Of a stretch of DNA of 64,000 nt, positions 9,621 to 28,471 are shown one piece after another. A model generated the notes under the pieces. It saw only the letters and a list, made by a program, of their open reading frames with translations. It was not told where the DNA came from and searched no databases. Position 1 is the first letter of the stretch; every line of letters begins with the position of its first letter. This DNA comes from a virus. Lineage: Duplodnaviria > Caudoviricetes. A program made the position numbers and the translations under genes. The DNA lies in IMG/VR virus record IMGVR_UViG_3300028392_002123, one strand, 5' to 3'.

Positions 9621-10201
9621 ACTTTGACTTGCCCTACAAGCATATAGGTCCGGTGCCCCGAGAATTATTGGAGCAGGCCGAGTCAGGAGTCATTGACTTA
9701 GAAGCGTCAGGCGCTTATAATTTTAAACACGGCGAATGGCTACGCTTGGACAGTTATTATAATCCGGATAATCATCAATTATCTGACATCGTGGGCTCGG
9801 GCCTAGTAGATCATGTCATGAGTTTCTTTCCCGGTGAAAAGTTGTTTGGGTGGAGTGTCAGTCATATACCGCCACATCAGCCCGTGATTGATCATGCTGA
9901 TCGTATGTTTTTTCATAGATTTGCCAAACGTATTATTGTGCCCATCAATGACGTGGGCAATAATGTATTAAATTGGCACTGGTCTTGGAATGATACAAGA
10001 CGTTGTTATTTCTTTGAATACGGAAATATATATAGATTAAACACAGCATGGACACATGGTGTTAAAAATTCTTCTAACAAGGTTAGAAGAGCAGTTTATT
10101 TTGATGTTATGGAAACTAAATTTTACGATAAATTCATCACACATCCTGACATACTAACAGTTATATTGGCCAATGCTGCCGGAGAGAGATATGTACTTTA
10201 A
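9617..10201 (+). CDS. Asp/Asn beta-hydroxylase-like 2OG oxygenase
   Basis: IDHAD...RIIVPI...LNTAWTHGVKN. Confidence 0.6.
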   Translation: MNFDLPYKHIGPVPRELLEQAESGVIDLEASGAYNFKHGEWLRLDSYYNPDNHQLSDIVGSGLVDHVMSFFPGEKLFGWSVSHIPPHQPVIDHADRMFFHRFAKRIIVPINDVGNNVLNWHWSWNDTRRCYFFEYGNIYRLNTAWTHGVKNSSNKVRRAVYFDVMETKFYDKFITHPDILTVILANAAGERYVL

Positions 10202-11682: not shown

Positions 11683-12266
11683 AGGTCATTGATTTAATTA
11701 AAACACCCATGGAGGGCCTGTGGGCAGACTGTCTGACAGTGATTGCTGACAGTGAGGATCCCTTAAAAGAAAATTATACCACAATAAACTTTGAAGAGTT
11801 TATCAGTTTTCCCTGTGTCGTTGACAGTGATAGAATAGTCTGTTTCAGCGGCCTGCAATACAACGAACGTAAGTGGGGTCGGGGCATTGCCAGAGCCAGT
11901 AGTAGGATGTGGATAGATCCTGCATATAGACATCAAGGTATTACCAAATTCACTGGTGGTAGTAAATTTCTCAATACCACTTACTGCCTGCCCTTACAGT
12001 TTGCAGAACTTGCGGCCAACAATATTAACAGCGTTTTTATCAGCAGGGAAAGCAATGTTCGTGCTTTTAAAGAATATTTAAAATTGATTAAGATTAACTG
12101 TGGCATGGAATTCGAATTGGAACCGAATTTGTACAATGTCTGTGGGCCACAGTCTGTGATACCTGTGAGTTGCCAACAATTCGTTGCTGTACACCATAGA
12201 AATAAGTCCGCGTCGACTTGGACTGCAAATATGATTAAGTATAAACTTAATGAATTTATTATTTAA
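11679..12266 (+). CDS. GNAT-like acyltransferase
   Basis: SRMWIDPAYRHQGI resembles acetyl-CoA binding motif A. Confidence 0.55.
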   Translation: MKVIDLIKTPMEGLWADCLTVIADSEDPLKENYTTINFEEFISFPCVVDSDRIVCFSGLQYNERKWGRGIARASSRMWIDPAYRHQGITKFTGGSKFLNTTYCLPLQFAELAANNINSVFISRESNVRAFKEYLKLIKINCGMEFELEPNLYNVCGPQSVIPVSCQQFVAVHHRNKSASTWTANMIKYKLNEFII

Positions 12267-12274
12267 ATAACTGT

Positions 12275-13183
12275 ATGAACATGGGAAATATTAAAGGCTA
12301 CTACGAAGATGATCCTTCAAGGGTATTTAGAACCGGTATGATGGATCTACTTACTTTTGAAGTACAAGGATGCACGAGGCCGGCACAGACACTCAAAGAA
12401 GAATTGATGCTAGCGGCCAGTGATATATACAATACTGTACCTGATATACACATAGCACTATCCGGTGGTTGGGAAAGTAACGTATGTCTGCATACTTTTA
12501 TGGAAGCAGGATATAAACCCCGGGTAATGATTCTGGAGTTTCCCCGGGGACTCAATGACTTTGACACAGATCCTGCCAAAGAAGCTTGCCGTAGATATGG
12601 CATTACTCCTACCATCGTACCTGTTGACATGTCCTTTCTAGACTTTATCAAAAACGCTGTAGTACCTGTGGTAGAAAAATATCAAACATATACTTTTTTT
12701 CAAAGTTTGTTTGCTTATTACTTGGAAAAAACAAAAATCAACTGCTTGCTAGTAGATAAAGTAGATCTGCGCCGCGATCTAAATCCTAATGGTCAGTGGA
12801 GTTTTATACGCAGTGAAGTAGCTACATGGACTGATCGATTCAACACACTCAACGAAAATAAAGTATTGATGAATTTTTATTGTCACAGTCCCGAAGCCAT
12901 GCTGGCCTATTTAGAACTGCCCACTATAGTCGACTTGATGAATCATCCTAAAAATGGTAAGCTAAGTCTACAAAGTCTCAAACATAAGATCTATCTAGAA
13001 GGCGGATACAATATTCCATTGTTTACACGAACTGTCAGCACTGATAAGATCATTGGCGTAACAGCGGCCTGCGAAGAAAAGATTAAAAAAGACATTGGTT
13101 GGAAAACTAGGATAGGCTACGTAGAGTATCCTAAAATTGTTCAAGCATTAAAAAGTGAAGGTGGAAAATGGCAATACATTTAA
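12275..13183 (+). CDS. PP-loop (adenine nucleotide alpha-hydrolase)-like protein
   Basis: IALSGGWES variant of SGGxDS; similar to 16184 and 26287 ORFs. Confidence 0.55.
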   Translation: MNMGNIKGYYEDDPSRVFRTGMMDLLTFEVQGCTRPAQTLKEELMLAASDIYNTVPDIHIALSGGWESNVCLHTFMEAGYKPRVMILEFPRGLNDFDTDPAKEACRRYGITPTIVPVDMSFLDFIKNAVVPVVEKYQTYTFFQSLFAYYLEKTKINCLLVDKVDLRRDLNPNGQWSFIRSEVATWTDRFNTLNENKVLMNFYCHSPEAMLAYLELPTIVDLMNHPKNGKLSLQSLKHKIYLEGGYNIPLFTRTVSTDKIIGVTAACEEKIKKDIGWKTRIGYVEYPKIVQALKSEGGKWQYI

Positions 13184-13779
13184 GAAGATTGGTAACAGAA
13201 GACTTGGCCGTTATAGAATCTATGGCCAAAGAAAAATTAGTAATGACCAATACTAAAAGTTTTGTATTTGAAGAAAACGGTGTTGCTGTGTTCAAATACT
13301 TTGTCTTACCAGATTCAATCTATGGCGCAGAAAAAATGCGCTGTTATGGTTACTTTGAAGATGATAAATTATTGGCTGTATTGGGTTTGAGAACATTTGA
13401 TCAATTCCCCAGTTGGATCCTTAGCTTTATTGTCACTAGTAACGACTGTAAAAATAGCATTGACTGTATTAAATCACTGCTAGAGTACACCATAGAAGAA
13501 CAGGAAAAACTGGGATTCTATCAATGGTTTACAGTGAGTAAATTGGAAAAGTTTGAGGTTTGGCAAAAACTATTTAAAAAGGCCAGACAGAAATACCATC
13601 ACTATGTCTATGCAAGAATCCCAGCTAATACCATGCCTAAATGGTTGAGTCACTTGAGCTTTAGCCGCGGAAAATTGTTTCCTTACGATATAAATATCAG
13701 CATGTACATGGCTAAGAGTTTGTGTACTTCGGACGGCGACGACTCGGATGTCGACGAACGTGACATAGACTTTTTATGA
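13168..13779 (+). CDS. Possible GNAT-fold protein
   Basis: YGYFEDDKLLAVLG...W.LSFIV...LLEY...G pattern; no clear motif A. Confidence 0.4.
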   Translation: MAIHLRRLVTEDLAVIESMAKEKLVMTNTKSFVFEENGVAVFKYFVLPDSIYGAEKMRCYGYFEDDKLLAVLGLRTFDQFPSWILSFIVTSNDCKNSIDCIKSLLEYTIEEQEKLGFYQWFTVSKLEKFEVWQKLFKKARQKYHHYVYARIPANTMPKWLSHLSFSRGKLFPYDINISMYMAKSLCTSDGDDSDVDERDIDFL

Positions 13780-14636
13780 ACGAACAAGAACCAATTAAAC
13801 TAAACAATTTTTTATATTTTGTGCTGTATCCAGCACACTTAGCTGCCTTATTAGGTATTTTTGTATTTCCATTCTACTTTGATTTTGGTATTAAACATGT
13901 TGTATGTTTACTGCTAGGATGGGTACTATTAGCAGGCATAGGTAGTGCTATTACCTTACACAGAGTTGTCAGTCACAGAGCATTAGAACCGCGCCGTGGT
14001 TTTAAACCTGTTATGCTGTGGCTGGCCAGTTTGTGTTTACAGGGAAGTCCTTTGGGTTGGGCCAGTATACATAGAGGCGCACATCATAGACATGCTGACA
14101 CAGACAGAGATCCGCATACTCCGCAAAAAGGTTTTTGGTACAGCTATCATGGTTGGCTCTATGACTGGGCAAATTATTATAATTTTAGATTCAGTGTGGA
14201 CTTGATCAGAGATCCCATGCACATGTGGTTCGCACAGCACTACACTAAGATCATTGCTGTAACTTATATAATCGTGGGATTAATCGACTGGCAAGTTCTT
14301 TTATTCATGTTTATTATTCCTGCTGTTTACAGCCTGCATCAAGAAAGCTGTGTAAACTATTTCTGTCACTTGCCTAATAAAGGTTATAGGAACTTTGAAA
14401 CCAAAGATGACAGCAACAATAGATCAGTTATGGCCTTGTTAGTTTGGGGTCAAGCTTGGCACAACAATCATCATGCCAAGGCCAGTGCCTACGACTTTGG
14501 CACCACTGTTAGTGGTCGTATTGACGAATTTGATCCCACATTATTGTTAGTACCTTTACTAGCAACCAAAGAAAGTAGACAACGTATATTTAAAGCGAGA
14601 GAAGATGCAACTACAATTCCGAACACTAATAATTAA
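13776..14636 (+). CDS. Membrane fatty-acid desaturase (delta-9-like)
   Basis: His boxes LHRVVSH, HRGAHHRHAD..DPH, WHNNHH; TM helices. Confidence 0.9.
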   Translation: MNEQEPIKLNNFLYFVLYPAHLAALLGIFVFPFYFDFGIKHVVCLLLGWVLLAGIGSAITLHRVVSHRALEPRRGFKPVMLWLASLCLQGSPLGWASIHRGAHHRHADTDRDPHTPQKGFWYSYHGWLYDWANYYNFRFSVDLIRDPMHMWFAQHYTKIIAVTYIIVGLIDWQVLLFMFIIPAVYSLHQESCVNYFCHLPNKGYRNFETKDDSNNRSVMALLVWGQAWHNNHHAKASAYDFGTTVSGRIDEFDPTLLLVPLLATKESRQRIFKAREDATTIPNTNN

Positions 14637-15153
14637 TCCTGATAATTGGATTATTGGTGAGCATACTAACAAAGATGCTATGATATGGGCGATATCAGAT
14701 CGTCCTTGGTATAATCTTAGAACTTATACTATTAAAGATGAATTTTCTTTGCCCGCACAGTTAAAAACCAATAGCTGGACGCAGGTAGAAATTAATAGGG
14801 AAAACACTTGCCCACAGGATGTGCTGAGAGAAATTAAATTAATCGAAGCTAGAATTAAATTCTGTGCGGAGTTATACTATCGCTTACAAATAGCACAGGA
14901 AAATCTAGGACTCAGCATGACTAATTTTACCTTGGTGCAATTACATGAATATCTCGTCAGCAAAGGACTAGTTGAAGGAGAAGCCAATCCAGATGCCAGC
15001 ATACAGTACGAAAACAAACTGAGATTATTACAAGATTTAAACAACATCAAAAATCAAGTTGTTGCTTCTTTAATGTCTGCGGCAACCATTGAAGATTTTG
15101 CTCAAACAAGAGCACTCATGGAACGCCTATTCTTCACTAACATATTACTATGA
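14605..15153 (+). CDS. Hypothetical helical protein preceding PP-loop ATPase
   Basis: Overlapping start/stop with both neighbours; positional analog of 33547..34170. Confidence 0.6.
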   Translation: MQLQFRTLIINPDNWIIGEHTNKDAMIWAISDRPWYNLRTYTIKDEFSLPAQLKTNSWTQVEINRENTCPQDVLREIKLIEARIKFCAELYYRLQIAQENLGLSMTNFTLVQLHEYLVSKGLVEGEANPDASIQYENKLRLLQDLNNIKNQVVASLMSAATIEDFAQTRALMERLFFTNILL

Positions 15154-16187
15154 ATTTAATTTACTATCATCCGATTGCATTACCCGTAGAACAAAAAGGC
15201 ATATTTCATGCCTGTGTTAATCCACTAATTTCTGTCATGGATAGAACTGATAATCGTTGGCCCGCAAAGCTAGACTATGTCAATTTATTCCCCATGCCCG
15301 CGGTATCGGCGGATCCAACACCTAACTTCATGGACACCAGCATAGCCAGGATAAAAGAATTAACCGAGCATGATCAACATGTTAATCTACTGTGGAGCGG
15401 TGGCATTGACAGCACGTTTATCATGACCATGATGATTGACTTGGGCATTGCTGATCAACTGTTCAATGAAGGTAGATTGACCATTGGTTTAAATCAGGAC
15501 AGTATCAAAGAGAATCCAGTGTTCTATGAAAAGTTTATCAAAGCACGTTATATGAAATGTGTGGTGCAGGCCAATCATATTTTAATTAATCCCAAACCCG
15601 ATCAAGTTATTATCACAGGCGAAATGGCCGACAACTTGGTAGGTAGTTTAACTATGAAAAGTTGTGTAGATTTTTACAACGACTTCAGTGTTGTTCATAA
15701 ACCATATGCCCAGGCCATTGATTGGATGACACGCAATTTAAAAAAGCCTGAATACAAGGATAATCTGCAAAAGTTTTTAGAAAGTGCTATTGCTAAAAGT
15801 CCAGTTGAATTGACCACATGCCATGATCTACTTTGGTATTTGAACTTCAATTATAAATGGCAAGCAGTTAACTTTAGAATTGTCAGCCATTGTCGGGATC
15901 AAAACACTGGAAATTTATTGATTAAAAACTTAAAACATTTCTTTAACACTGACAGTTTTCAACAATGGAGTCTCAAAGAAGGACACTATTTTGAAGGCAG
16001 TAATTGGGGAGATTATAAAAAGGTCATGAAGAAACAAATCTATCAAGTTACCAGCGACTTAGAATATTTTAAGAACAAGACCAAACATCCTAGTTTGCCT
16101 GCATTGCTACGCTATAAAGATACCTTTGACTTTATCTACGAAGACAATGGCAGTTACGTGTTTACTAAAAAACAGATTCAATCATGA
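15150..16187 (+). CDS. Asparagine-synthase-C-like PP-loop ATPase (no glutaminase domain)
   Basis: LLWSGGIDST, TGEMADNL.G, FF...FQQWS. Confidence 0.75.
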   Translation: MNLIYYHPIALPVEQKGIFHACVNPLISVMDRTDNRWPAKLDYVNLFPMPAVSADPTPNFMDTSIARIKELTEHDQHVNLLWSGGIDSTFIMTMMIDLGIADQLFNEGRLTIGLNQDSIKENPVFYEKFIKARYMKCVVQANHILINPKPDQVIITGEMADNLVGSLTMKSCVDFYNDFSVVHKPYAQAIDWMTRNLKKPEYKDNLQKFLESAIAKSPVELTTCHDLLWYLNFNYKWQAVNFRIVSHCRDQNTGNLLIKNLKHFFNTDSFQQWSLKEGHYFEGSNWGDYKKVMKKQIYQVTSDLEYFKNKTKHPSLPALLRYKDTFDFIYEDNGSYVFTKKQIQS

Positions 16188-17095
16188 ACTTTGGCATAGA
16201 AGAAACCACAGGCAAGTTCTACGTAGAACATGTTAGCTGTAGTCGTCAACCTGGCACACTTCGCGAAGAAAGCGATCGTCGTGCCAGAGAGATTTATTCT
16301 AACAATAATAAAGTAATGCTGTGCCTCAGCAGTGGCCTAGACAGTCAAATAGCATTACACAGTTTTCTCAGTCAGGGCATACCTGTTGAATGTGCCTTTT
16401 TACGCTTGGGAGGATTCAACGACAATGAATATGAAAACTTACAAGTATTGGAAAAGAAATACGGATTTAAAAGTCATGTCATTGAACTAGATCCCAATGC
16501 TCGCAGAGAAGAATTAGAAGCACTGAGTCCAGTACTGGACGCACATTTAAATCACTGCATACAACATCTATTCGTCAAAGAGCTACCCCGAGACTATGAC
16601 ATTGTACAAGTACTGCATGATCCATGGTTGGTAACTAGAAAAGATACTGCACAACACTATGTTTATCAAAGTTATTATGATCCAGAGATAGCTCGCTATC
16701 GTGCATTGTCTGCCATACCCGATCGCACAGGTCGTATAGAAATGTTTGGCAACAGCAGTGAATATTTTGTCAGCAGTATCAATGACGAATTATTTCACTA
16801 CTTTCTTAAGAGTTGGGTTTACTATGATGGCAATGGTTTCAAGCTCTACGACCTCAAAGTCAATGACGTTCTGCGCTATGAATACTATATCAAACCCATG
16901 CTGTATGCCAAGCACTGGGGCGATGAACTAATTTACTTTCCCAAGTTCTCGGGCTATGAAAACATTGATTGGCTCTACAAAAGTGTACGTAAAATACAAA
17001 AAGAAAAACAATGCTTTATGCTCTGGCAGGATTTGATCAAACACTATCTTGCTTGTACGGGTACTAGTAAAAGATTCTACGAAGTTAAATTTTAG
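16184..17095 (+). CDS. PP-loop-like protein
   Basis: LCLSSGLDSQ; paralog of 26287..27225. Confidence 0.6.
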   Translation: MNFGIEETTGKFYVEHVSCSRQPGTLREESDRRAREIYSNNNKVMLCLSSGLDSQIALHSFLSQGIPVECAFLRLGGFNDNEYENLQVLEKKYGFKSHVIELDPNARREELEALSPVLDAHLNHCIQHLFVKELPRDYDIVQVLHDPWLVTRKDTAQHYVYQSYYDPEIARYRALSAIPDRTGRIEMFGNSSEYFVSSINDELFHYFLKSWVYYDGNGFKLYDLKVNDVLRYEYYIKPMLYAKHWGDELIYFPKFSGYENIDWLYKSVRKIQKEKQCFMLWQDLIKHYLACTGTSKRFYEVKF

Positions 17096-17606: not shown

Positions 17607-17683
17607 TGGCGCGGTGGACGGGACTCGAACCCGCGACCCTCGGCGTGACAGGCCGATACTCTAACCAACTGAGCTACCACCGC
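17607..17683 (-). tRNA. tRNA-Asp(GTC)
   Basis: Cloverleaf, loop CT-GTC-AC, encoded CCA. Confidence 0.95.
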
Positions 17684-18311
17684 TAATCTTCTTAACTCTA
17701 ACTAAATCCAGACTGGGATTACACACTGGAATTCTAGCGTATTTAATATAAAAATTCTTTAATAATTCTAACTCTATGTCCTTGCACAAACTAGGATGCA
17801 TGGGCAAGTATGCTTGATAACATTTATCAATTAACTTAGCATCAAAGTTTTCTTTAAACGCAGTACCACAACCATAGGGACTAAGTCTATTATTTCTAAT
17901 AGTTCCTTTAAAGTCTGTGCGTCTGCCTAACATACAATTACGTGTTACTGCTCTACTTTCACCAATGTAAATAACCTGTTCAGATAAAAAATCTGCAGGT
18001 CCCGGGGGAACAGTATCTTCAAATAGTCCATATATATAACAACCTGGATGTGCTTTGTCAAAGCCCCAGGTCCTGGACCAAGGTTCGTCTATGTGATGCC
18101 AAGCTGTAAAATTTTTAAAGTCTGGCCTTACAGTAGTTTTTAGTTGTGTGACAAAATATTCAACGCCACTTAACTCAGCACACTTCCGTAGGCTATAAGC
18201 CAATTGTTCTATGTTAGAATCTTTGAATATATCATAGAGTTGGTCTTCGGTTAATCCGTGATTACCTGATCCCATTCTAATATTTTTAGCAAGTATCTGT
18301 GCGGCGTTCAT
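17661..18311 (-). CDS. GIY-YIG-like nuclease; 3' end overlaps tRNA-Asp
   Basis: GCYIYGL...VIYIGES...R...E pattern. Confidence 0.55.
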   Translation of the reverse strand: MNAAQILAKNIRMGSGNHGLTEDQLYDIFKDSNIEQLAYSLRKCAELSGVEYFVTQLKTTVRPDFKNFTAWHHIDEPWSRTWGFDKAHPGCYIYGLFEDTVPPGPADFLSEQVIYIGESRAVTRNCMLGRRTDFKGTIRNNRLSPYGCGTAFKENFDAKLIDKCYQAYLPMHPSLCKDIELELLKNFYIKYARIPVCNPSLDLVRVKKISGGSSVG

Positions 18312-18320
18312 TGTTATAAT

Positions 18321-18398
18321 TGGAGCAACGGGTAGGATTTGAACCTACGGTTTTAGGGATTTGCAATCCCTTGCATTGGGCCACTCTGCCACCGTTGC
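18321..18398 (-). tRNA. tRNA-Cys(GCA)
   Basis: Loop TT-GCA-AA, CCA. Confidence 0.93.
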
Positions 18399-18403
18399 AT
18401 TGT

Positions 18404-18478
18404 TGGTACTCGATAGGGGAATCGAACCCCTCTTTCCGGCGTGAAAGGCCAGCGTCCTAACCGATAGACGAATCGAGC
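18404..18478 (-). tRNA. tRNA-Glu(TTC)
   Basis: Loop CT-TTC-AC, CCA. Confidence 0.95.
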
Positions 18479-18495
18479 AATGATATTATTTTACA

Positions 18496-19146
18496 TTAAA
18501 TGTTTGACTGTGTCAACTGATATTTTGCAATTAGATTATCAATTAATTCTTTTTTTGGTTCAGTGTGAAATTGATACCAGATGTGTAATCTTCTATGACC
18601 TTTGGGAACATGGATATCATGCTGTATCGCTGTTTGTATCAGCACCGGAGTACTGGTAATAGGTTGATGTACAGTCAATGATTCTGTGTCGTTTCTAAAT
18701 TTCCAAAGACATTCCGGAGTTGTTTCCACAGCAATGTGTACACGAAAGGGAGTGTGATTATCCACGTGCCAGTTAAGATTTACATTAGCATGATCTTTGT
18801 ATAATAAACTTGATCTTGCTCTAGGCGGCCCTATTTCTAAGTATTCTGAAAATAACTTTCCCAGCTGTTGAATATAAGATCCCTGCAATGATCTGGGCCA
18901 ATGCACTAAATCTCTGTCATCTTCTCCTGTGGCCAGTATATGTCTACTATGAGGATTAAATTTACGTTGTCCACTGTATTTTGTAAAACTGAAATTGTCG
19001 TTGTTAAGATCTTCTAGTTGACAAGTTAGACCGCAGTCTATGCCAATCTGTGGTTTAACTATGTTATAAATCTCTTGTCGAACTTTATCAACATCAACAT
19101 TAATATCTACTAAGGGGATATAAAATTGATCTAATAGTGTATGCAT
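18496..19146 (-). CDS. Asp/Asn beta-hydroxylase-like 2OG oxygenase
   Basis: WHVDN...RVHIA...QHDI; TATAAATA at 19152-19159. Confidence 0.6.
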   Translation of the reverse strand: MHTLLDQFYIPLVDINVDVDKVRQEIYNIVKPQIGIDCGLTCQLEDLNNDNFSFTKYSGQRKFNPHSRHILATGEDDRDLVHWPRSLQGSYIQQLGKLFSEYLEIGPPRARSSLLYKDHANVNLNWHVDNHTPFRVHIAVETTPECLWKFRNDTESLTVHQPITSTPVLIQTAIQHDIHVPKGHRRLHIWYQFHTEPKKELIDNLIAKYQLTQSNI

Positions 19147-19159
19147 GGTGATATTTATA

Positions 19160-19234
19160 TGGCCGGTCCGGAGAGATTCGAACTCCCGACAGCTGGTTTC
19201 GAAGACCAGAACTCTTCCACTGAGCTACGGACCG
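19160..19234 (-). tRNA. tRNA-Arg(TCG)
   Basis: Loop CT-TCG-AA, CCA. Confidence 0.93.
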
Positions 19235-19283
19235 TACGACTTATGTTGTATATATCAATGACCAGTTATCTTTAAATAAGTGT

Positions 19284-19478
19284 ATGACTAGAACTCTTTC
19301 AATTTACGTTAATAATATATTTTGGAAAGCCATTACCATAGATGTTGCTCCAAATAATTCATACCCACTGGGCCCTATACTAGAAATGGTTAATACTGCA
19401 CGAGCCAACGGCGTTTTCAATGATTACGAAGTTAGTCCGGATCATTTTAACATACGTGTTGCGCTGTCGCATAATTAA
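19284..19478 (+). CDS. Small hypothetical protein
   Basis: 64 aa ORF 5 nt after TAAATA. Confidence 0.5.
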   Translation: MTRTLSIYVNNIFWKAITIDVAPNNSYPLGPILEMVNTARANGVFNDYEVSPDHFNIRVALSHN

Positions 19479-19503
19479 TAAGATCTAACTGTTAAATACT
19501 TGT

Positions 19504-20223
19504 ATGTTAACAGATGTAATTTATACTCCAGTGGATCCACTGGAACCTATGCCAGAAGTTGATCCTAAAAAATTTCACCAATGGATCAAAGACAATTATC
19601 CTAAAACAGCAGTCTATAGGGACATAATAATTAATAAAGGACGAACTGCATCAGGCAGGGTAGAAAATTATCCATGGGATTTAACAGTGGGTTATATGGC
19701 CAGTATGGGGTGGGTGGGCACCTTTAAAAATGAATGGCCTGAGCTAGCAGACTGGATTCCACGAGCATGGGGCATTGATATCACAGATATTGGTGTTATT
19801 ATATTTTTACCTACAAGAGAACAACAATTAGGCACAGCATTTTGGCATAATGATGCAGATCTGCATGGCCTTAGATTTTATATAGAATTTGAAGATCCAG
19901 AAAACAATACGTTGTTAATGAGAAGAACTAAAATCAAACACGAAGTTAAACCTATATATGATTATCCATTGGATACAGAAAAATATTTACAAAAAGAAAT
20001 TTTAACTTGTAATATATCAAAAAGGAATCAGGTATTCTTTTTAAACAACACATTGTCTGCTCATGCTGTACATACCAATGTACCAGGCAAGGTACGCATA
20101 GCATGTTTCATATCAATTAATACATCTAGGAATAAAAAAGTTTCTGACATTGTCTGTCCTATAATAGAACGTAGTGCAGAAAAGTATAAAGATTATTCTT
20201 TATATTGGAAACCAGAAGAGTAA
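19504..20223 (+). CDS. Cupin/2OG-Fe(II) oxygenase-like protein
   Basis: FWHND...LNNTLSAHAV. Confidence 0.55.
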   Translation: MLTDVIYTPVDPLEPMPEVDPKKFHQWIKDNYPKTAVYRDIIINKGRTASGRVENYPWDLTVGYMASMGWVGTFKNEWPELADWIPRAWGIDITDIGVIIFLPTREQQLGTAFWHNDADLHGLRFYIEFEDPENNTLLMRRTKIKHEVKPIYDYPLDTEKYLQKEILTCNISKRNQVFFLNNTLSAHAVHTNVPGKVRIACFISINTSRNKKVSDIVCPIIERSAEKYKDYSLYWKPEE

Positions 20224-20237
20224 GCCCCGAAGGGCTT
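20222..20237. terminator. Hairpin between convergent genes
   Basis: AAGCCC-CGAA-GGGCTT. Confidence 0.55.
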
Positions 20238-20838
20238 ACATGGTAGGTCCGTTGCCATTGCGAAAGCCTACACTTCCACCTTCTGCTTCAATACGTGCAA
20301 TAACGTCTTCAAATAAGATAGGTGCAAAGTCAGTTTGCTCCACGCAGACACAGTGATAGCGCACATCGGGTTCGTCGCTGTATAAGATTTCTCCTGTACG
20401 TGCGTCAACACCACGAGCCTTCTTCACGCGATTGGCATGAGTGTGTCCGTGAATGTTAACACCAAAGCGACCCATTGAGTCCGAGTGTAACGGAATATGG
20501 CTTAAGATCATTCCGTTCATAACATGGTATGCTCGTAATTCTCTAAAGTACTGCCTATACTCGTCATCACGGAAGATGTCGTGGTTACCGCGGATTAAGA
20601 CCTTGTCGCCGTTTAAGCGACTCATGATGCTTAAAGCCTTGCGGTTAATAACAACGTCACCTAAGTGGTAGACCTTATCAGTGGGCTTTACCCGTTCGTT
20701 CCACGCCTTAACCATAGCTTCGTCCATTTCCTCAGGACTATCCCATGGGCGTAACTTAGTAACACCATCGTTACGTGTGAAGCGGCAGACGCCGGTATGT
20801 CCGAAATGCGTGTCGCTAACTAAAAATACACTAGGCAT
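20236..20838 (-). CDS. Calcineurin-like metallophosphoesterase
   Basis: SDTHFGH, HLGD, GNHD, HGHTH. Confidence 0.9.
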   Translation of the reverse strand: MPSVFLVSDTHFGHTGVCRFTRNDGVTKLRPWDSPEEMDEAMVKAWNERVKPTDKVYHLGDVVINRKALSIMSRLNGDKVLIRGNHDIFRDDEYRQYFRELRAYHVMNGMILSHIPLHSDSMGRFGVNIHGHTHANRVKKARGVDARTGEILYSDEPDVRYHCVCVEQTDFAPILFEDVIARIEAEGGSVGFRNGNGPTM

Positions 20839-20860
20839 CTTGCCCTCCTTTTAAAATTAT

Positions 20861-20889
20861 ATTATACACTATTATGACTTTGATGTCAA
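20861..20889 (-). promoter_or_regulatory. sigma70 consensus promoter
   Basis: TTGACA-17-TATAAT, followed by AGGAGG SD. Confidence 0.85.
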
Positions 20890-20893
20890 TTAT

Positions 20894-20969
20894 TGGTACC
20901 AAGAGTCGGAATCGAACCGACCACACACGGATTTTCAATCCGTTGCTCTACCTACTGAGCTATCTTGGC
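20894..20969 (-). tRNA. tRNA-Phe(GAA)
   Basis: Loop TT-GAA-AA, CCA. Confidence 0.95.
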
Positions 20970-20978
20970 ATTATTGAA

Positions 20979-21190
20979 TTTGTAAGTAGTTGCTCCATCG
21001 TTATAGCAACCATTCACCCATGTATATAAAGCCGGCTGGGACTCGGTACGTCACTTGGGATACTAGTCCAGTTAGCAACCAATCTGCGGAGATCTTCCGA
21101 TCTCCCGGGAGTTGAACCCGTCCCCTTTTACTATTTTGGTAGTTCGAACTTACCTAGATAGCGTGACATTCTCTTGCTGACACTTACAAA
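20979..21190 (-). ncRNA. Candidate structured ncRNA between tRNA-Ser and tRNA-Phe
   Basis: Terminal 9-bp stem TTTGTAAGT/ACTTACAAA plus several internal hairpins; no ORF. Confidence 0.6.
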
Positions 21191-21193
21191 ACT

Positions 21194-21283
21194 TGGCGGA
21201 AGCGGTGAGATTCGAACTCACGGCCCACTTTCGTGAACGACGGTTTTCAAGACCGTTGCCATAGACCACTCGGCCACACTTCC
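21194..21283 (-). tRNA. tRNA-Ser(TGA)
   Basis: Loop CT-TGA-AA, long variable arm, CCA. Confidence 0.95.
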
Positions 21284-21288
21284 TGATT

Positions 21289-21362
21289 TGGCGTCCCGCC
21301 AGGGACTCGAACCCCGACCAACGGTTTTGGAGACCGTTATGCTGCCATTACACCAGCGAGAC
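21289..21362 (-). tRNA. tRNA-Trp(CCA)
   Basis: Loop CT-CCA-AA, CCA. Confidence 0.95.
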
Positions 21363-21368
21363 ATTAAT

Positions 21369-21460
21369 TGGTACCCCCGGCGGGAATCGAACCCACATGA
21401 ACCAATTATCTGTTGCTTACGGGATATAAATCCGCCGTTTTACCGTTAAACTACAGGGGC
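21369..21460 (-). tRNA. Atypical tRNA-Ile(TAT) with 22-nt variable arm
   Basis: Acceptor GCCCCTG/CGGGGGT, normal D and T arms, loop TT-TAT-AT, CCA. Confidence 0.7.
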
Positions 21461-21465
21461 ATATT

Positions 21466-21542
21466 TGGTGCCGCAACCTGGACTCGAACCAGGGACCTTT
21501 CGCTTATCAAGCGAATGCTCTAACCAACTGAGCTATTGAGGC
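21466..21542 (-). tRNA. tRNA-Ile(GAT)
   Basis: Loop TT-GAT-AA, CCA. Confidence 0.95.
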
Positions 21543-21551
21543 AATATAAAC

Positions 21552-21627
21552 TGGGGTGAAGGATGGGACTCGAACCCACAACAACTGGAATCACAATCCA
21601 GGGCTCTACCATTGAGCTACCGACACC
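21552..21627 (-). tRNA. tRNA-His(GTG)
   Basis: Loop TT-GTG-AT, G-1, CCA; two acceptor mismatches. Confidence 0.9.
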
Positions 21628-21644
21628 AAAAGATAAATAATTTT

Positions 21645-22220
21645 ATGTACTGTTTCCACTTAAACTTAGATCTAGCACCTTTTAAATTTAAATTTAACTA
21701 TAAAGATTACTTGCCTCCATTTGGAAAAACAAGTAATGTAGTTAAATTTAATCTCGTCGACATAAATCCAGAACTTGTAGAATTATTAGCCGAGCGCAAT
21801 ATAAAAATTGGCTGGGCTGAAATGTTTATTAAACATCCTCATATGACAGTAAATGAACAAATACACATCGATGAATTTCGAGGAGACTTTGTTAAATTAA
21901 ATTGGGTCTGGGGAGGAACCGGAAGCACTATGAGATGGTTCCGAGAACTTGATCCTGCAAAAAAATTAACACCATCAAGCAATCAAATCAACAGTCCTTA
22001 TCTAGGATTCAGTATCAATGATGTTGTTCTAGAACATGAAGAAGCACTTAGTGGACCGTGTATAATACAAGTTGGTGTTCCACATAATGTTGTCATGGGC
22101 ACTGATATGAGATGGGCATTGAGTTTTGTATTATTGGATATCACTGGTAATACCAGTGCTCGACGAAGATTATCAATGCCACAAGCTTTGGAAAACCTAA
22201 GCAATCTACGCAAAGCATAA
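21645..22220 (+). CDS. Cupin/2OG-Fe(II) oxygenase-like protein (start moved to MYCFHL)
   Basis: IHIDE...KLNW...MRWF...PHNV; ATAAATA just upstream; similar to 5646 and 6341 ORFs. Confidence 0.6.
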   Translation: MYCFHLNLDLAPFKFKFNYKDYLPPFGKTSNVVKFNLVDINPELVELLAERNIKIGWAEMFIKHPHMTVNEQIHIDEFRGDFVKLNWVWGGTGSTMRWFRELDPAKKLTPSSNQINSPYLGFSINDVVLEHEEALSGPCIIQVGVPHNVVMGTDMRWALSFVLLDITGNTSARRRLSMPQALENLSNLRKA

Positions 22221-22407
22221 ACTTCCGTATAATTAACGATATGCTTTTTCTTATTAAGTAATTTAATAAGGAAAAACACTATGCGTAGAAAAAAATGGAT
22301 TGACAGAGTATCAGATATCTATCAATCAACAAAGCGAATTAATAGAAGAAGAAACTAAAAGTATACGAGCTCAAGAAAGAAAATCTTTCCTAGCTAGAAC
22401 GTTCAAA

Positions 22408-22482
22408 TGGTGGTGATAGTTGGATTTGAACCAACGACCGGCCGCGTATGAAGCGGATGCACTACCACTGTGCTATATCACC
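22408..22482 (-). tRNA. tRNA-Met(CAT), probably elongator
   Basis: Loop TT-CAT-AC, paired 1-72, CCA. Confidence 0.88.
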
Positions 22483-22637
22483 ATAAGGCGGGAGCCCAAC
22501 TATCCGGGTGGCCCGGCCTTGCTGGATTGTCTCGAATAGTCAAGTCAACTAAACTACAACCATACTATAGTGTCACCGCAGTTAACCCTACTGTGGCTAG
22601 GTTGGCAAGGACTCAAAACTATCGTCTATCCCAAAAC

Positions 22638-22715
22638 TGGCACCCATGGAAGGATTCGAACCTCCGACTCCCTGCTTCGTAGGCAAGTACTCTAGTCCAA
22701 CTGAGTTACACGGGT
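22638..22715 (-). tRNA. tRNA-Arg(ACG)
   Basis: Loop CT-ACG-AA, CCA. Confidence 0.93.
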
Positions 22716-22718
22716 ATA

Positions 22719-22794
22719 TGGTAGGACGTACTGGATTCGAACCAGTGACCAATGGATTAAAAGTCCACTGCTCTACCAACTGAGCTAACGTCCC
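22719..22794 (-). tRNA. tRNA-Lys(TTT)
   Basis: Loop CT-TTT-AA, CCA. Confidence 0.95.
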
Positions 22795-22799
22795 GTAAC

Positions 22800-22873
22800 T
22801 GGCACCCGGAGTAAGAATCGAACTTACAATAGCAGAGTCAAAGTCTGTTGTGTTACCACTACACTATCCGGGA
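22800..22873 (-). tRNA. tRNA-Gln(TTG)
   Basis: Loop CT-TTG-AC, CCA. Confidence 0.93.
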
Positions 22874-22880
22874 ATTAATA

Positions 22881-22956
22881 TGGTACTCCGTGGGGGAATC
22901 GAACCCCTCGTTTGCGCCTTGAAAGGGCACCGTCCTAACCGTTAGACGAACGGAGC
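22881..22956 (-). tRNA. tRNA-Glu(TTC), second copy
   Basis: Loop CT-TTC-AA, CCA. Confidence 0.93.
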
Positions 22957-22961
22957 AAAAT

Positions 22962-23047
22962 TGGTGGAGGCGGATGGATTCGAACCACCGCGCTTTTTAC
23001 AGAACAGATTTACAGTCTGCCGCCTTCAGCCACTCGGCCACACCTCC
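22962..23047 (-). tRNA. tRNA-Tyr(GTA)
   Basis: Loop CT-GTA-AA, long variable arm, CCA. Confidence 0.95.
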
Positions 23048-23050
23048 ATA

Positions 23051-23241
23051 ACACACTCTTTCGAATGTGTGTATTAAAGCACACTAGCCGCTCTGTTTCT
23101 TCTGTATGCCTACAGATTGTATCCATTCGTCTAATATGCTTTAATACGCTGTAATTTTTCATCTCACAAAAGAGACTCTATCCTACAGGCCGCCCGTTTC
23201 CCCATGTTTTAAGTGCGGGGTGAGCCCTCGTTGCTCCACAC
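23051..23241 (-). ncRNA. Candidate structured ncRNA leading the tRNA operon
   Basis: 11-bp stem 23071-81/23137-47, GAAA- and GGCA-capped hairpins. Confidence 0.55.
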
Positions 23242-23244
23242 TAT

Positions 23245-23281
23245 AAAAACAAAAACCCTGGAGTTTTTAGTTCCAGGGTCC
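23245..23281 (-). terminator. Attenuator-type intrinsic terminator
   Basis: minus strand GGACCCTGGA-ACTAAAAAC-TCCAGGGT-TTTTGTTTTT. Confidence 0.8.
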
Positions 23282-23312
23282 TTGAAGTTTTGAAATGTAT
23301 TAAGTTGTTTAC

Positions 23313-23423
23313 TTAACCATCCCATCCCTCCCGGACCCTGATATTAATCTCGCGGTCAAAGCAAAGCATTGACCAATATATGGAATGCTGTGAGCTAAGA
23401 TTAAAAAGTTTGTTGTTCATCAT
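23313..23423 (-). CDS. Putative leader peptide, 36 aa
   Basis: MMNNKLFNLSSQHSIYWSMLCFDREINIRVREGWDG; ATG 7 nt after a consensus -10. Confidence 0.6.
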   Translation of the reverse strand: MMNNKLFNLSSQHSIYWSMLCFDREINIRVREGWDG

Positions 23424-23430
23424 AGTGTGT

Positions 23431-23459
23431 ATTATACAGTTATTTATCTTTTATGTCAA
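23431..23459 (-). promoter_or_regulatory. sigma70 consensus promoter of tRNA operon
   Basis: TTGACA-17-TATAAT. Confidence 0.85.
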
Positions 23460-24138: not shown

Positions 24139-25056
24139 TTAACTAATATCTAATTTGTTATTTACAATGAAGGACATCAAAGATTTATTAGATCTCAGCA
24201 CCGTATTAGTCATCGATGATTCGGTGGATCCCACCGGCATCAGTCCTAGATTAAATACAGTTTCTTTAAATTCTTTATTTTTAAAAACACTGATTGCATC
24301 ACTGACAATTTTTTCTTTCATTGATTTACTCATTGATTTGGCTACCACTAAGCAAATATAACTTTGGTAAGGAAAAGATTCTTTAAAATATTTGTCCCAC
24401 GTAAGTATGTTATCTCCCATGTCGTGGCTGGCAAATAATATACTAACACGGCTGTCTCCGATAAAAGGTTTGACACTTGAATAGTTGCCAAATGTACAGT
24501 CTACTTGCCCTGCTAGAACATCCATGGCGCCTTTATTACCTCCACTGGGATAAGGAACGATAATGTGTTTTCCCTGAGCACGTACAAACAATGCTTCAGT
24601 GGCAATATGTTCTGAGCTACCATAGCCGTTGACTGCAAAACTTAGAGATTTTTTTGTGTTTAAAAACTCGTTGAACGTTGTGATACCCAGACCAGCTCTG
24701 CAAGCTAACAAATTAGGAAGTACAGCCACTGTTCCTAAAATTTCTAAATCTCGTTCAGTGTCGTATTCTAAGTCTTTATAATTTAAAGTGTTAGTGACAT
24801 AAATCTGTGGCATAGTGGCCATGAGCACACTTTCACCTTTGAGTACTTGTTTCATTGCCAGTCTGCCGGCCGCACCCGGACGATTCATAACAATATAATC
24901 TTCTATTGAGAGATTCTTGACTATCAGTCTAGTAATTCTATCACTGGGACCGCCAGGAGCATGATGCACAGTATACTCAATAATCGATGCAGGCTTTGCA
25001 CAGACAGAGAAAATTACCAGTGATATCACTAGTAAAAATTTAATTGTATTCTTCAT
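24139..25056 (-). CDS. Bug/TctC tripartite tricarboxylate transporter solute-binding protein
   Basis: Signal peptide, PGGPSD..TR, NRPGAAG, H.A.E, VPY..GG...DVLAGQVD. Confidence 0.85.
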   Translation of the reverse strand: MKNTIKFLLVISLVIFSVCAKPASIIEYTVHHAPGGPSDRITRLIVKNLSIEDYIVMNRPGAAGRLAMKQVLKGESVLMATMPQIYVTNTLNYKDLEYDTERDLEILGTVAVLPNLLACRAGLGITTFNEFLNTKKSLSFAVNGYGSSEHIATEALFVRAQGKHIIVPYPSGGNKGAMDVLAGQVDCTFGNYSSVKPFIGDSRVSILFASHDMGDNILTWDKYFKESFPYQSYICLVVAKSMSKSMKEKIVSDAISVFKNKEFKETVFNLGLMPVGSTESSMTNTVLRSNKSLMSFIVNNKLDIS

Positions 25057-25079
25057 ATATCTACTTATAAGCCAAGGCC

Positions 25080-26240
25080 TTAAGTTGCATACTGCGGCAA
25101 CAGGCCTGGTATTGGACCTAAGTCATAAAACTTATGGAAATGTTTTAAACCATCCCCGCTGTCATTGACAAAATCAGACAAGGTAGTATTGACATATTCA
25201 ATGCCCTCTCTCCAAATATTAACAGCCTTTGTGTGGGAGTATCCGTCTTTGAACCATAAATCGAATTCACTGTACCAGTCTGATGTAGATTTATCTGCTT
25301 GCCACCAATTGGTATCCCATGTTGAATATATCACACTTCTTAGCACTCGTTCGTGAATCAAACGAACTTTTTCATGTGTGATGTTGGGTGCATACCAGTG
25401 TTCTTGCATGTGAGGATTGGCCGCCAAATATTTTTTAATTACATGCCCCTGCTTTATCAATAAAGGAACACAGTCGGGGCTCCAATAAAAGAATTCAGCC
25501 ATGGCATTTGGATATTCTCTAAAATGCTCAGCTACTGTATTTTGATTAGCGGCACGATCTACAAAGCGCATCAATAGTTTACCATCGGCAATGGCTACCC
25601 TGGGTTTTTCAATGCCGATTATCATGCATATCTTTTTATCTTTATCGAATTGTTTTCTCACGTCTGCTAGAGCCAGATAATTGAAACGTGTGGCACCTGC
25701 AGGATTTATACCTTCGCGTTTGGTAAGAACCCAACTAGCATCTCCAGTGCCTTCCATAAAATCAAATAAATGATCACTTAGGTCAGCCACAGTAATTTTT
25801 GTTTTAGGTATCAGCGGTGCAATCTCTTTTAACCTAGGCATAGTCTGCAGATAGTGTTCTGCACCAGCGTTTTTTGCATCCATGTTTGCAGGATTTAAAT
25901 CGATGAACTGTTTACTGGCTTTTTCAAAATGATTAACAACTATTTCATCTACGTGCAGGCCTTGACGCACAAAGCTCATTAGAATATTGTTACTGTCTGC
26001 TCCGCCACTATAACTTATCATAACATAGTCATATCGTTCTCGTAGCTGTCGAGCTCGTCGATTATATAGTTCATCCAATGATTCTTCGGGCTCAACAGCC
26101 CAGTTATAAGAATCGAATACTCTGTCATTAAAAATCCAATTAACTGGTTTATTAACTTGAGTACTATGTAGACATGCTAAAATTTTTGAAGTGAATTCTT
26201 TGCCATCGCAGACATAGAATCCTAACTCTCTGTTGATCAT
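25080..26240 (-). CDS. PP-loop ATPase-like protein
   Basis: ISYSGGADSNN, GIEKP, FFYWS. Confidence 0.65.
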   Translation of the reverse strand: MINRELGFYVCDGKEFTSKILACLHSTQVNKPVNWIFNDRVFDSYNWAVEPEESLDELYNRRARQLRERYDYVMISYSGGADSNNILMSFVRQGLHVDEIVVNHFEKASKQFIDLNPANMDAKNAGAEHYLQTMPRLKEIAPLIPKTKITVADLSDHLFDFMEGTGDASWVLTKREGINPAGATRFNYLALADVRKQFDKDKKICMIIGIEKPRVAIADGKLLMRFVDRAANQNTVAEHFREYPNAMAEFFYWSPDCVPLLIKQGHVIKKYLAANPHMQEHWYAPNITHEKVRLIHERVLRSVIYSTWDTNWWQADKSTSDWYSEFDLWFKDGYSHTKAVNIWREGIEYVNTTLSDFVNDSGDGLKHFHKFYDLGPIPGLLPQYAT

Positions 26241-26286
26241 TGATTGTTCTCGGTAAATATTTTGCTACAATATTTAGTGAGCTATA

Positions 26287-27225
26287 ATGAAATCTGGATT
26301 TGAAAATAACAAGTTTTACGTCGAATATACCAGCCCTGGCCGGAAGATTGGTAATATGCGCGAAGAGCTTGATCTAGCGGTTAAAACAATTTCCGATTCT
26401 AGTGGCGACAAGTTACTGTTAGGTCTTAGCAGTGGCTTGGACAGTCAAGTAATACTACACAGTCTACACGAACAAGGTTTGCCATATACCTGTGCATTTT
26501 TATACATGCCAGGATACAATGATCATGAATACAACAATGTAAAAGTTTTGGAAAAGAAATATGGTTTCAATGCATTGATAGCTGAAATCGATCCTGCCAA
26601 AGAAAAAGATGAAGTATTAGACCAAGCCTATTCTCAGCACATACTTCCCAATCATTTCATGCATAAAAAGTTTTTATCATTGTTGCCCGCGGACATGGAT
26701 TACTTGAACGGTATCGAAGGACCCGACATTGTGATGAATGAAGAATCTGGTAAAAGATATATCATGGAGGCCCATTGGAATTTTGAAAATACTAGACTAA
26801 GAACATTGCGTAGCTTAGATAGGTCAGGCAAAGTATTAAACATTGATCGTAACGAAACCAGTGAAGCGTTCTTACTCAGTATAATCAACGATGCTGTATT
26901 CAGAGGTTATATCAACAGTATTCGTTATATTTTACACAATGACCTTGTTGACGGATCAGGTAAAAAGCCGGGCATTATATTCAACTACAATTATTATATC
27001 AAACCCATCATCATGGGAAGATACTGGGGTCATGAGCTATTGTATTTCCCAAAATCTATGGGCGTGGAAAAAATAGATTGGATTATGAACTGTCCCATTA
27101 AAAGTACATATAGTCGAGATGTTGTTCACACTGAATATTATACTCTGAGAAAATTCTTGTTACAAGATAAAGTAGATGTACTGAGAATGGAAGACAAATT
27201 GCCTACATCAGAGGCCCACAGTTAA
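26287..27225 (+). CDS. PP-loop-like protein
   Basis: LGLSSGLDSQ; paralog of 16184..17095. Confidence 0.6.
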   Translation: MKSGFENNKFYVEYTSPGRKIGNMREELDLAVKTISDSSGDKLLLGLSSGLDSQVILHSLHEQGLPYTCAFLYMPGYNDHEYNNVKVLEKKYGFNALIAEIDPAKEKDEVLDQAYSQHILPNHFMHKKFLSLLPADMDYLNGIEGPDIVMNEESGKRYIMEAHWNFENTRLRTLRSLDRSGKVLNIDRNETSEAFLLSIINDAVFRGYINSIRYILHNDLVDGSGKKPGIIFNYNYYIKPIIMGRYWGHELLYFPKSMGVEKIDWIMNCPIKSTYSRDVVHTEYYTLRKFLLQDKVDVLRMEDKLPTSEAHS

Positions 27226-28140
27226 TTCTTCTACAATCTGTTTAACTGGTTTAATACTAGTAATATGATCTATTGCACCACCAGCAAAGACGTGTCCTTC
27301 GTTGGGACTTTGAATACCTTTTGCTAGTCCGTATGTATTATTTTCTATGTCAAGAGCAGTTTTACTAAACAAAAAACCACTTTGGTTTGCTGTTCCTATT
27401 TTTACAGTTTCCGAGTAGGATGATTCTAACATTTTCTTTTTAGTTTCCAGCGACACAACTGATTCTTCCGACACCGCAAAAACTGTGCCGAGACTGACAA
27501 TATTCGCACCTGCAGAAAGATGTTCTTTTATTCCCTGACTGTCATATATTCCGCCTTGTGCTATAATAATCCAATTTGGTTTTAACAAACGTAAAGCACG
27601 TATAGCTTCTACTAGATCAAATGTTGTCGAAGAAACTCTACCTGCACCTTTATCACCTTTGAGTATGATACCATCTAAGGAATTCATAACATTTGAATTT
27701 TTATTCAAATGTTCGATCACAGTTTCAAATGAAAGGAATTTACCTAGTACCTTAGTTCCATTTTCTTGAACTTGTTTTAATAATCTAGGAAAACGTGGAT
27801 CTGTGACAAAGTAGTTGTCAAACATTTCTATGTACGCTGGCTTTAACTCTAAGATAATTTTAAATGTTTCTGTGGAATCAGTGAAAATAGGTGTGTTAAG
27901 TCCTAGTATAAAATCCGAATCACCTACTTTGTTTATATAGTATGTTAGATGTTCTCTTAGAACTTTTGGATCGTATATAAAAGTAGATCCTGTTTGAACA
28001 GTATGATTAAATGTAACAAAACTGGGATAACATCCTGTTTCTTTGACTGCCAGTGCCAACTTGACGTTGGACACAGTGGTCATCCCGGAACAGATAATGG
28101 GATACTTAGAATTAAAATTATTTTGATGATCTGTGTACAT
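27208..28140 (-). CDS. Nitronate monooxygenase / FabK-like FMN oxidoreductase (start moved to MYTDHQ)
   Basis: PIICSGM, G..GAG, IIAQGGI, GA..V.LGT.F; TATAAATA at 28148-28155. Confidence 0.75.
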   Translation of the reverse strand: MYTDHQNNFNSKYPIICSGMTTVSNVKLALAVKETGCYPSFVTFNHTVQTGSTFIYDPKVLREHLTYYINKVGDSDFILGLNTPIFTDSTETFKIILELKPAYIEMFDNYFVTDPRFPRLLKQVQENGTKVLGKFLSFETVIEHLNKNSNVMNSLDGIILKGDKGAGRVSSTTFDLVEAIRALRLLKPNWIIIAQGGIYDSQGIKEHLSAGANIVSLGTVFAVSEESVVSLETKKKMLESSYSETVKIGTANQSGFLFSKTALDIENNTYGLAKGIQSPNEGHVFAGGAIDHITSIKPVKQIVEELTVGL

Positions 28141-28176
28141 ATGAAAATATTTATAGCACACTATCATCTATAATAT

Positions 28177-28261: not shown

Positions 28262-28471
28262 TTATTTGTTAGGTCTAATCTTTAAGAGATAGTCTCGGCC
28301 AACATGGCCTTCTTCGACTTCTCTTAGAGCTGTAACTGTTTTACTAGGACTAGGTTTAACCATTGGTGTTGCACCGGCGTACAATTCTCTAACTCGTAAC
28401 GAAGCTACTAGAACTAAATCAAATCTATTTCCAATTTGCTCGACTGCTTTTTCACTTGTAATTCTTGCCAT
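28262..28471 (-). CDS. rpoZ: RNA polymerase omega subunit
   Basis: [27 protein letters not shown]...K.TVTALREV. Confidence 0.9.

Follow-up and report, generated by a model that had tools for sequence, protein, structure and literature searches.

A probable ribosome-dependent attenuator ahead of freshwater phage tRNA arrays, with a leader ORF whose amino acid content follows that of the array

Transcription from a strong early promoter into a structured noncoding RNA (ncRNA) and an array of tRNA genes is, in our judgment, likely to be set by a ribosome-dependent leader-peptide attenuator. The proposal rests on sequence features, on alternative RNA pairings that covary, on conservation of the leader open reading frame (ORF), and on a link between leader composition and tRNA array. 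The core idea of an earlier, sequence-only reading of this DNA, namely, that a ribosome-dependent attenuator with many sensing codons gates the tRNA array, is supported by the ORF, the covariation, and the tracking of composition. With less assurance, though we lean toward it, we propose that a widespread family of giant freshwater phages carries a pan-amino-acid leader: a test ORF of 34 to 51 codons, with one codon per array amino acid, that is kept by selection, coevolves with the gain and loss of tRNA genes, and acts as a homeostat or a counterdefense trigger upon any tRNA shortage. Phage tRNAs are usually seen as compensating for codon usage or as replacing host tRNAs destroyed by nucleases (PMC11555353, PMC12409363). 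The phage studied here is known from freshwater metagenomes only: DNA and protein searches of GenBank phages returned only tRNA matches and one distant nitroreductase, with no cultured relative, and no public RNA run contained this stretch, the phage being found in DNA metagenome runs only.

In the window (the whole 64,000-nt stretch of phage DNA that was analyzed), the element lies on the minus strand (Table 1). The sequence-only reading had described a promoter, a 36-codon ORF, a hairpin, a complementarity, and a terminator, all of which were recovered where it had placed them, and the ncRNA and 16 tRNA genes that it had put behind the terminator were confirmed by ARAGORN, Rfam, and fold z score. 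Only two sigma-70 sites matching the consensus at 12/12 positions occur between 19 and 26 kb, the leader promoter among them. Because the ATG lies only 7 nt past the -10 box, the leader mRNA of the window is inferred to be leaderless or nearly so, its start site being unmapped. The 185-nt leader folded at z = -5.35 versus shuffles, and its minimum-energy fold contained the antiterminator, not the terminator: P1-P2-P3 reached -34 kcal/mol versus -14 kcal/mol for the terminator (-18.2 kcal/mol with the extended stem). The P1 5′ strand is the exact complement of a segment that overlaps the terminator 5′ arm. Only because of its 9-nt loop was the terminator overlooked by a simple scan.

Table 1. 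Positions of the attenuator and of the genes that follow it in the 64,000-nt window
Feature	Positions	Strand	Basis and details
Sigma-70 promoter, TTGACA, 17-nt spacer, TATAAT	23431..23459	-	12/12 consensus match; TTGACA 23459-23454, TATAAT 23436-23431
Leader ORF, 36 codons plus TAA, beginning ATGATG	23313..23423	-	Open reading frame; ATG at 23423, TAA at 23315-23313
Predicted sensing codons 1-25	23349..23423	-	Geometry from fold and ribosome footprint
Mid-ORF hairpin GGTCAA/TTGACC, directly after Trp codon	23354..23374	-	Fold
Antiterminator P1 5′ strand, CAGGGTCC, codons 28-31	23333..23340	-	Minimum-energy fold
Inner antiterminator helices P2 (GAGG with CTTC) and P3	23284..23330	-	Fold, double-sided changes in relatives; P3 a hairpin, stop codon 23313-23315 within its 5′ strand
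GGACCCTG, common to P1 3′ strand and terminator 5′ arm	23274..23281	-	Fold, covariation
Intrinsic terminator	23245..23278	-	7-bp G+C core, 13 pairs with A/U flanks, 9-nt loop; CCCTGGA 23278-23272, TCCAGGG 23262-23256, T5-G-T5 23255-23245
Structured ncRNA, first product past the attenuator	23048..23244	-	Fold z = -5.43, ~195 nt
16 tRNA genes, 13 amino acids, few ORFs between	17607..23047	-	ARAGORN and Rfam
Second consensus promoter, inside the array, right after tRNA-Phe	20861..20889	-	12/12 consensus match

An exact 24-nt word from the leader had no match in IMG/VR. Tracing the upstream nitroreductase brought up metagenome contig L081 (98% identity) as well as L082 and L086 (about 60%); in each of the three, the conserved ncRNA and tRNAs lie behind a promoter, mini-ORF, and terminator. 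Synteny with the nitroreductase was rejected as a general rule, as nitroreductase-anchored IMG/VR loci (≤50% identity) had no leader similarity downstream. Relatives were sampled by the downstream ncRNA motifs alone (ACGGGCGGC, GTATTAAAGCA, and TGCTTTAATAC), independently of any feature of the leader; the motifs recovered 58 viral contigs and >120 metagenome contigs, 80 of the latter being retrieved, and the comparative set consisted of 93 distinct leaders out of about 130 metagenomic phage loci.

In all loci with complete upstream sequence, the promoter, the ORF, and the terminator were present, together with an antiterminator that captures the 5′ arm of the terminator. The promoters (10 to 12 of 12 consensus positions, 17-nt spacer) were in the same place in every locus with upstream sequence, the ORFs spanned 34 to 51 codons and stopped 25 to 38 nt ahead of the terminator core, and a terminator with a G+C stem and T-tract (-12 to -20 kcal/mol) was present in every locus with enough upstream sequence. 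Many relatives had two consensus promoters about 100 nt apart. Two start types were seen: (i) a leaderless type, in the window and about ten lineages, with the ATG 6 to 10 nt past the -10 box and often ATGATG, and (ii) a type with a 26- to 96-nt 5′ untranslated region and a purine-rich, Shine-Dalgarno-like tract 7 to 10 nt before the ATG. The ORF was open in all 93 distinct leaders, which speaks for its translation, and its conservation, together with that of the complementarity, met the check in related phages that the sequence-only reading had set itself. The frame of the ORF relative to P1 differed by lineage (offsets of -15, -16, -18, -19, -21, and others), such that the window and L086 read the P1 strand in different frames. 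Since the frame over P1 varies, what persists appears to be an open frame ending inside the switch and no particular peptide. The 5′ part of the ORF had a pN/pS of about 0.5, relaxed relative to ordinary proteins yet not neutral, and given this degree of purifying selection, a function of the peptide cannot be ruled out.

Folding of the 46 distinct leaders of the first set was carried out on RNA that ended just ahead of the terminator 3′ arm, to represent the transcript as the polymerase nears the decision point. In 46/46 such leaders, the motif GGACCCY paired with an ORF segment 1 to 27 nt upstream of the stop codon, giving an antiterminator composed of an outer helix (P1), a short GGAG:CUYC helix (P2), and a hairpin (P3) with the stop codon. 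Predicted energies ranged from -19 to -34 kcal/mol for this antiterminator versus -13 to -17 kcal/mol for the terminator hairpin. In all sequences the stop codon fell inside P3 or adjoined it, a placement that would let a terminating ribosome block the antiterminator, with the blocking inferred from known footprint sizes.

Covariation supported both helices. Upon realignment of 41 leaders with a covariance model, 84.6% of antiterminator cells were paired, compared with 24 to 51% in slid controls; 14 of its 20 pairs were altered on both sides, a result equaled by 0/500 shuffles, and across relatives changes on both sides were seen in 12 of the 13 P2/P3 pairs. The terminator was paired in 99.7% of cells over the 41 relatives. 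The pyrimidine common to the two helices covaried with its antiterminator partner, the outer pair of P1 (AU in 19, GC in 13, and GU in 6), as well as with its terminator partner (CG in 15, UG in 14, and UA in 12), and such double covariation is the signature expected of mutually exclusive helices. In L081, compensatory changes were found in the terminator and in P3, where U-A had become C-G. With the latter change the peptide ends in a different residue, which indicates that at P3 the RNA pairing, and not the peptide, has been kept.

Other structures within the leader were less well supported. The 5′ ORF part of the leaders had a mean fold z of -2.3, and a mid-ORF hairpin was predicted in nearly all of them, although that of the relatives is a different one that ends at the Trp codon, whereas that of the window follows this codon. 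RNAalifold gave no consensus for this hairpin, and its pairing with the P1 5′ strand was not seen; in the absence of any consensus or covariation, a role as an RNA polymerase pause signal is conjecture. No anti-antiterminator of the trp 1:2 type was demonstrated in the leaders. Four G3 tracts resembling a G-quadruplex (window 23317-23338, minus strand) overlap P1, P2, and P3. Such tracts were limited to the leaders with a REGWDG tail (the window, L081, L112, L169, and L232), and with most relatives lacking them, a G-quadruplex was rejected as a separate element and treated as a by-product of the P2 and P3 strands.

The leaders were broad in amino acid content. Among the 93 distinct leaders, 68 contained all 20 amino acids, 12 contained 19, and the remainder contained 15 to 18. 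By chance, as estimated from random peptides of phage composition and from windows of real proteins, all 20 would be present in 0.3% of cases at 35 to 36 residues and in 2.5 to 5.6% at 46 to 50 residues, and no small ORF in the window had all 20 (0/116). When leaders were clustered at 70% identity, every member had all 20 in 22/38 clusters (binomial P of about 3e-18), and at 60% identity the count was 8/18 (P of about 3e-6). Cys occurred exactly once in 43/49 leaders, spread over 22 alignment columns, as did His in 39/49 (14 columns) and Tyr in 39/49 (13 columns); that rare residues are single and yet shift in position points to selection for their presence rather than for their position. If only codons at which a stall would free P1 were counted, 31/49 leaders still had at least 19 kinds, with Glu usually at the boundary. 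No runs of tandem regulatory codons were found, most amino acids occurring one to three times and the rare ones exactly once.

The window's own leader has 17 kinds of amino acids and lacks Ala, Pro, and Thr. Each of the 15 distinct anticodons of its array is matched by a cognate leader codon (P = 6.7e-4 under window codon usage); that of Arg-tcg is codon 31, within the antiterminator strand. Codons 1 to 24 comprise 14 kinds, and Glu, at codon 25, is at the boundary. The sequence-only reading had claimed that codons 1 to 26 cover all 13 array amino acids, which holds (P = 1.2e-3; 1.7e-2 for coverage inside 36 codons), and that Ala, Pro, and Thr are missing from both leader and array, which holds as well: their joint absence from 36 codons has a P of 2e-3 under window codon usage, and no tRNA-Ala, -Pro, or -Thr was found anywhere in the 64,000-nt window, which does not cover the rest of the genome. 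As to codon coverage, for which it had suggested a permutation test, coverage of amino acids and of anticodons exceeded chance, but the bare count of 17 kinds per 36 residues was ordinary (P of about 0.35 to 0.43). Its list for the leader was right as to the 13 array amino acids but passed over Asn (4 codons), Leu (3 codons, all of them CTT), Gly, and Val, none of which is served by an array tRNA. The window leader is a shortened or reduced derivative of the ancestral and commonest design, which holds 20 amino acids.

Array tRNAs were identified by ARAGORN on the loci and on larger pieces of five contigs. Leaders with missing amino acids occurred in phages with smaller arrays, and across 11 lineages with reduced leaders, the missing amino acid had no tRNA in the array directly downstream in 21/22 cases (Fisher-combined hypergeometric p = 8e-5; Table 2). 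Array kinds and leader kinds were correlated (Spearman 0.88). The sister phages L094 and L095 differ in this respect as well, as Ala and Cys are present in both leader and array of the former, unlike in L095. The single counterexample, L196 (4966-7600), has a tRNA-Cys in its array and no Cys in its leader; its tRNAs for Asp and Glu lie upstream of the attenuator, in another unit. Overall enrichment of cognate codons was weak (z = 1.35), and tuning to array anticodons at the codon level was rejected, as synonymous reshuffling with the peptide fixed gave P > 0.03 in 10/10 loci. The match of leader and array is thus at the amino acid level, with synonymous choice no better than genome usage.

Table 2. 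Amino acids absent from reduced leaders and the tRNA content of the array downstream
Locus	Absent from leader	Array
Window / L081	Ala, Pro, Thr	None of these
L097 / L138	Asp, Glu, Leu, Thr, Val	Only M Y W F C Q R K H I S
L096	Asp, Leu, Tyr	None; their tRNAs in a separate upstream block
L095	Ala, Cys	None of these
L094	Leu	No Leu
L109 / L114	Asp	No Asp
L124	Phe	No Phe
L157, L202	Val	No Val
L223	Leu	No Leu (array truncated)
L196	Asp, Glu, Cys	No Asp or Glu; tRNA-Cys present

The phage of L096 also has a second, paralogous attenuator-like element (L149:1315-1426, plus strand; 43 bits with model R1), which precedes a separate Ser-Arg-Leu-Leu-Leu... tRNA block and has a 35-codon frame with 6 Leu and 7 Ser codons. 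Its weak points are an ATG that overlaps the likely -10 box and a fold z of -0.9.

In the mechanism that we propose, host RNA polymerase would start at the consensus promoter and a ribosome would initiate at the 5′-proximal ATG. A ribosome keeping pace as far as the stop codon in P3 would occupy P2, P3, and the edge of P1; with GGACCCTG then freed, the terminator would form, and transcription would end at 23245-23255. A stall at any of about the first 25 codons, caused by scarce charged tRNA, would instead let CAGGGTCC pair with GGACCCTG, and the antiterminator, predicted to be more stable than the terminator, would block the latter such that the polymerase continues into the ncRNA and tRNA genes. 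Because every amino acid that the array tRNAs carry has a codon in the leader, a shortage of any one of these tRNAs would raise the output of the whole array, and phage tRNA supply would thereby be under homeostatic feedback. That the ORF is translated, that stalling is the signal, which way the switch works, and that it depends on charged-tRNA supply are all inferred, without RNA or ribosome data, and the anticodon nuclease trigger suggested in the sequence-only reading has no support in these results. In the absence of translation, read-through is predicted, since no anti-antiterminator is evident and the antiterminator is the stronger structure. The trp/his-type stalling model put forward in the sequence-only reading is accordingly kept only in part: a stalled ribosome would give the antiterminator as in that model, but the predicted untranslated default, read-through, departs from it. 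Control by the attenuator need not extend to the last four tRNAs because of the second promoter at 20889 within the array, past which lie a metallophosphoesterase ORF (20236-20838), a terminator-like hairpin (20239-20220), and these four genes.

The varied composition of the leaders could be nonspecific if the element were a general sensor coupled to translation, responding to ribosome availability or elongation speed and not to particular tRNAs, with termination requiring a ribosome close behind the polymerase. Read-through as the predicted default without translation, given the more stable antiterminator, would suit such a sensor, as would the lack of synonymous-codon tuning and the presence in the leader of amino acids without an array tRNA. 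We nevertheless consider it rather unlikely, for it leaves unexplained both the all-20 leaders (68/93) with their single, shifting Cys, His, Tyr, and Trp codons and the match between missing amino acids and missing array tRNAs. The purifying selection noted above (pN/pS of about 0.5 and not 1), together with a peptide motif common to many relatives (..AKQAGF.PS.W..SYDRTPE..), raises another possibility, that the ORF is the gene of a small functional protein and ends in a terminator of its own, the helix merely stabilizing the mRNA or tuning translation, and that tRNA transcription is unregulated, proceeding by read-through or from other promoters. However, the best-conserved stretches of the peptide coincide with RNA helices (P0 and P1 to P3), distant members without peptide similarity retain the structure and the composition, and the frame over P1 varies; nor would a small protein account for the strand common to helix and terminator with its three-way covariation or for the compensatory P3 change of L081 that swaps the last residue. 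This explanation strikes us as very unlikely.

The leader RNA is highly structured, in its entirety (z = -5.35) and in the mean of the 5′ ORF parts (z of -2.3), as would also be expected of a riboregulator that works independently of translation by binding a protein, a small RNA, or uncharged tRNA in the manner of a T-box, with the ORF incidental. Near the leader, neither a T-box nor any other Rfam family apart from tRNA was matched at E values up to 1, and if the ORF were incidental, it would not be expected to remain open in 93 divergent variants, through indels that preserve the frame, or to carry a composition signal, so that this explanation is scarcely credible to us. A ribosome-dependent attenuator remains the reading that we prefer.

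The ncRNA was always the first product ahead of the tRNAs and matched no Rfam family; a search with all Rfam families (E up to 1) over 16 to 31 kb returned tRNAs only, with no T-box, leader, or ncRNA family. In most relatives a small basic ORF of 51 to 86 amino acids is inserted between terminator and ncRNA (e.g., L082:7820-7975); it is absent from the window, L081, L089, L102, L107, L113, L119, L125, L128, and L143. L081 has two features not found in the window: a tandem duplicate of the promoter and first leader codons, which creates a 6-codon mini-ORF (6013-6070), and a PD-(D/E)XK_5 gene between the ncRNA and tRNA-Tyr (6596-6976). In the window, a 69-amino-acid ORF (28262-28471, minus strand) lies between two tRNA blocks, and its counterpart in L081 (1013-1222) matches PF01192 (RNA polymerase Rpb6/omega family); an omega-like subunit encoded by the phage beside tRNA genes may bear on the control of stable-RNA promoters. 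A transfer-messenger RNA (tmRNA) gene (63485-64000, minus strand) runs off the end of the window and encodes the tag ANDEQFALAA, which resembles the tags of proteobacterial hosts; the tmRNA of L082 has a longer tag. The regions flanking the element (170-17095 and 24139-28167) encode two B12-radical SAM proteins, a TctC-like binding protein, a nitronate monooxygenase-like protein, and the nitroreductase noted above, all of them auxiliary metabolic functions in what is a very large phage from freshwater.

To our knowledge, the control of phage tRNA gene expression is largely unknown, and our search of the full-text literature turned up no account of tRNA genes controlled by leader-peptide attenuation. 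If the proposed mechanism is correct, the textbook attenuation of amino acid operons has been adapted to sense decoding capacity for up to 20 amino acids, with a sensor that stays in step with the tRNA repertoire through evolution. The element would then be a compact natural sensor of translational stress and would help in predicting which tRNA blocks belong to a common regulatory unit.

The nearest points of comparison are known attenuators and tRNA-responsive switches. In the enterobacterial attenuators trpL, hisL, leuL, and pheL, runs of regulatory codons precede genes for biosynthetic enzymes. The phage element resembles them in its promoter-proximal mini-ORF, its intrinsic terminator, its antiterminator with a strand common to the terminator, a stop codon so placed that a terminating ribosome would mask the antiterminator, and read-through as the predicted result of stalling. 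It differs in that tRNAs and an ncRNA, not biosynthetic enzymes, would be regulated, in that the leader has about one codon per amino acid (up to 20) and no tandem runs, in that no 1:2 anti-antiterminator has been demonstrated, such that the untranslated state is predicted to give read-through instead of their superattenuation, and in that the window mRNA is inferred to be leaderless. Sensing of several amino acids by one leader is known from ilvGMEDA (Ile, Val, and Leu) and thr (Thr and Ile), which do so by clustered codons; there the amino acids are two or three related ones, whereas the phage leader samples 13 to 20, mostly by single codons, in a set that covaries with the array. The pheM leader of pheST, the phenylalanyl-tRNA synthetase operon of Escherichia coli, senses only Phe, and as is proposed for the phage element, it attenuates a component of the translation apparatus in response to tRNA charging, but the phage target is tRNA genes and not a synthetase. 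T-box riboswitches couple tRNA supply to a choice between terminator and antiterminator, as the phage element is proposed to do; they act by direct binding of uncharged tRNA and do without an ORF, unlike the phage element with its conserved ORF and lack of a T-box model match. The tRNA cluster of phage T4 is cotranscribed from early promoters with the stable RNAs C and D, whose function is unknown, and thus has, like the arrays described here, small stable RNA beside the phage tRNAs; we know of no leader-peptide attenuator described for it. Apart from codon runs and a demonstrated anti-antiterminator, the phage element has the structural features of classical attenuators, and it departs from them in the target, the one-of-each sensor, and the predicted default state.
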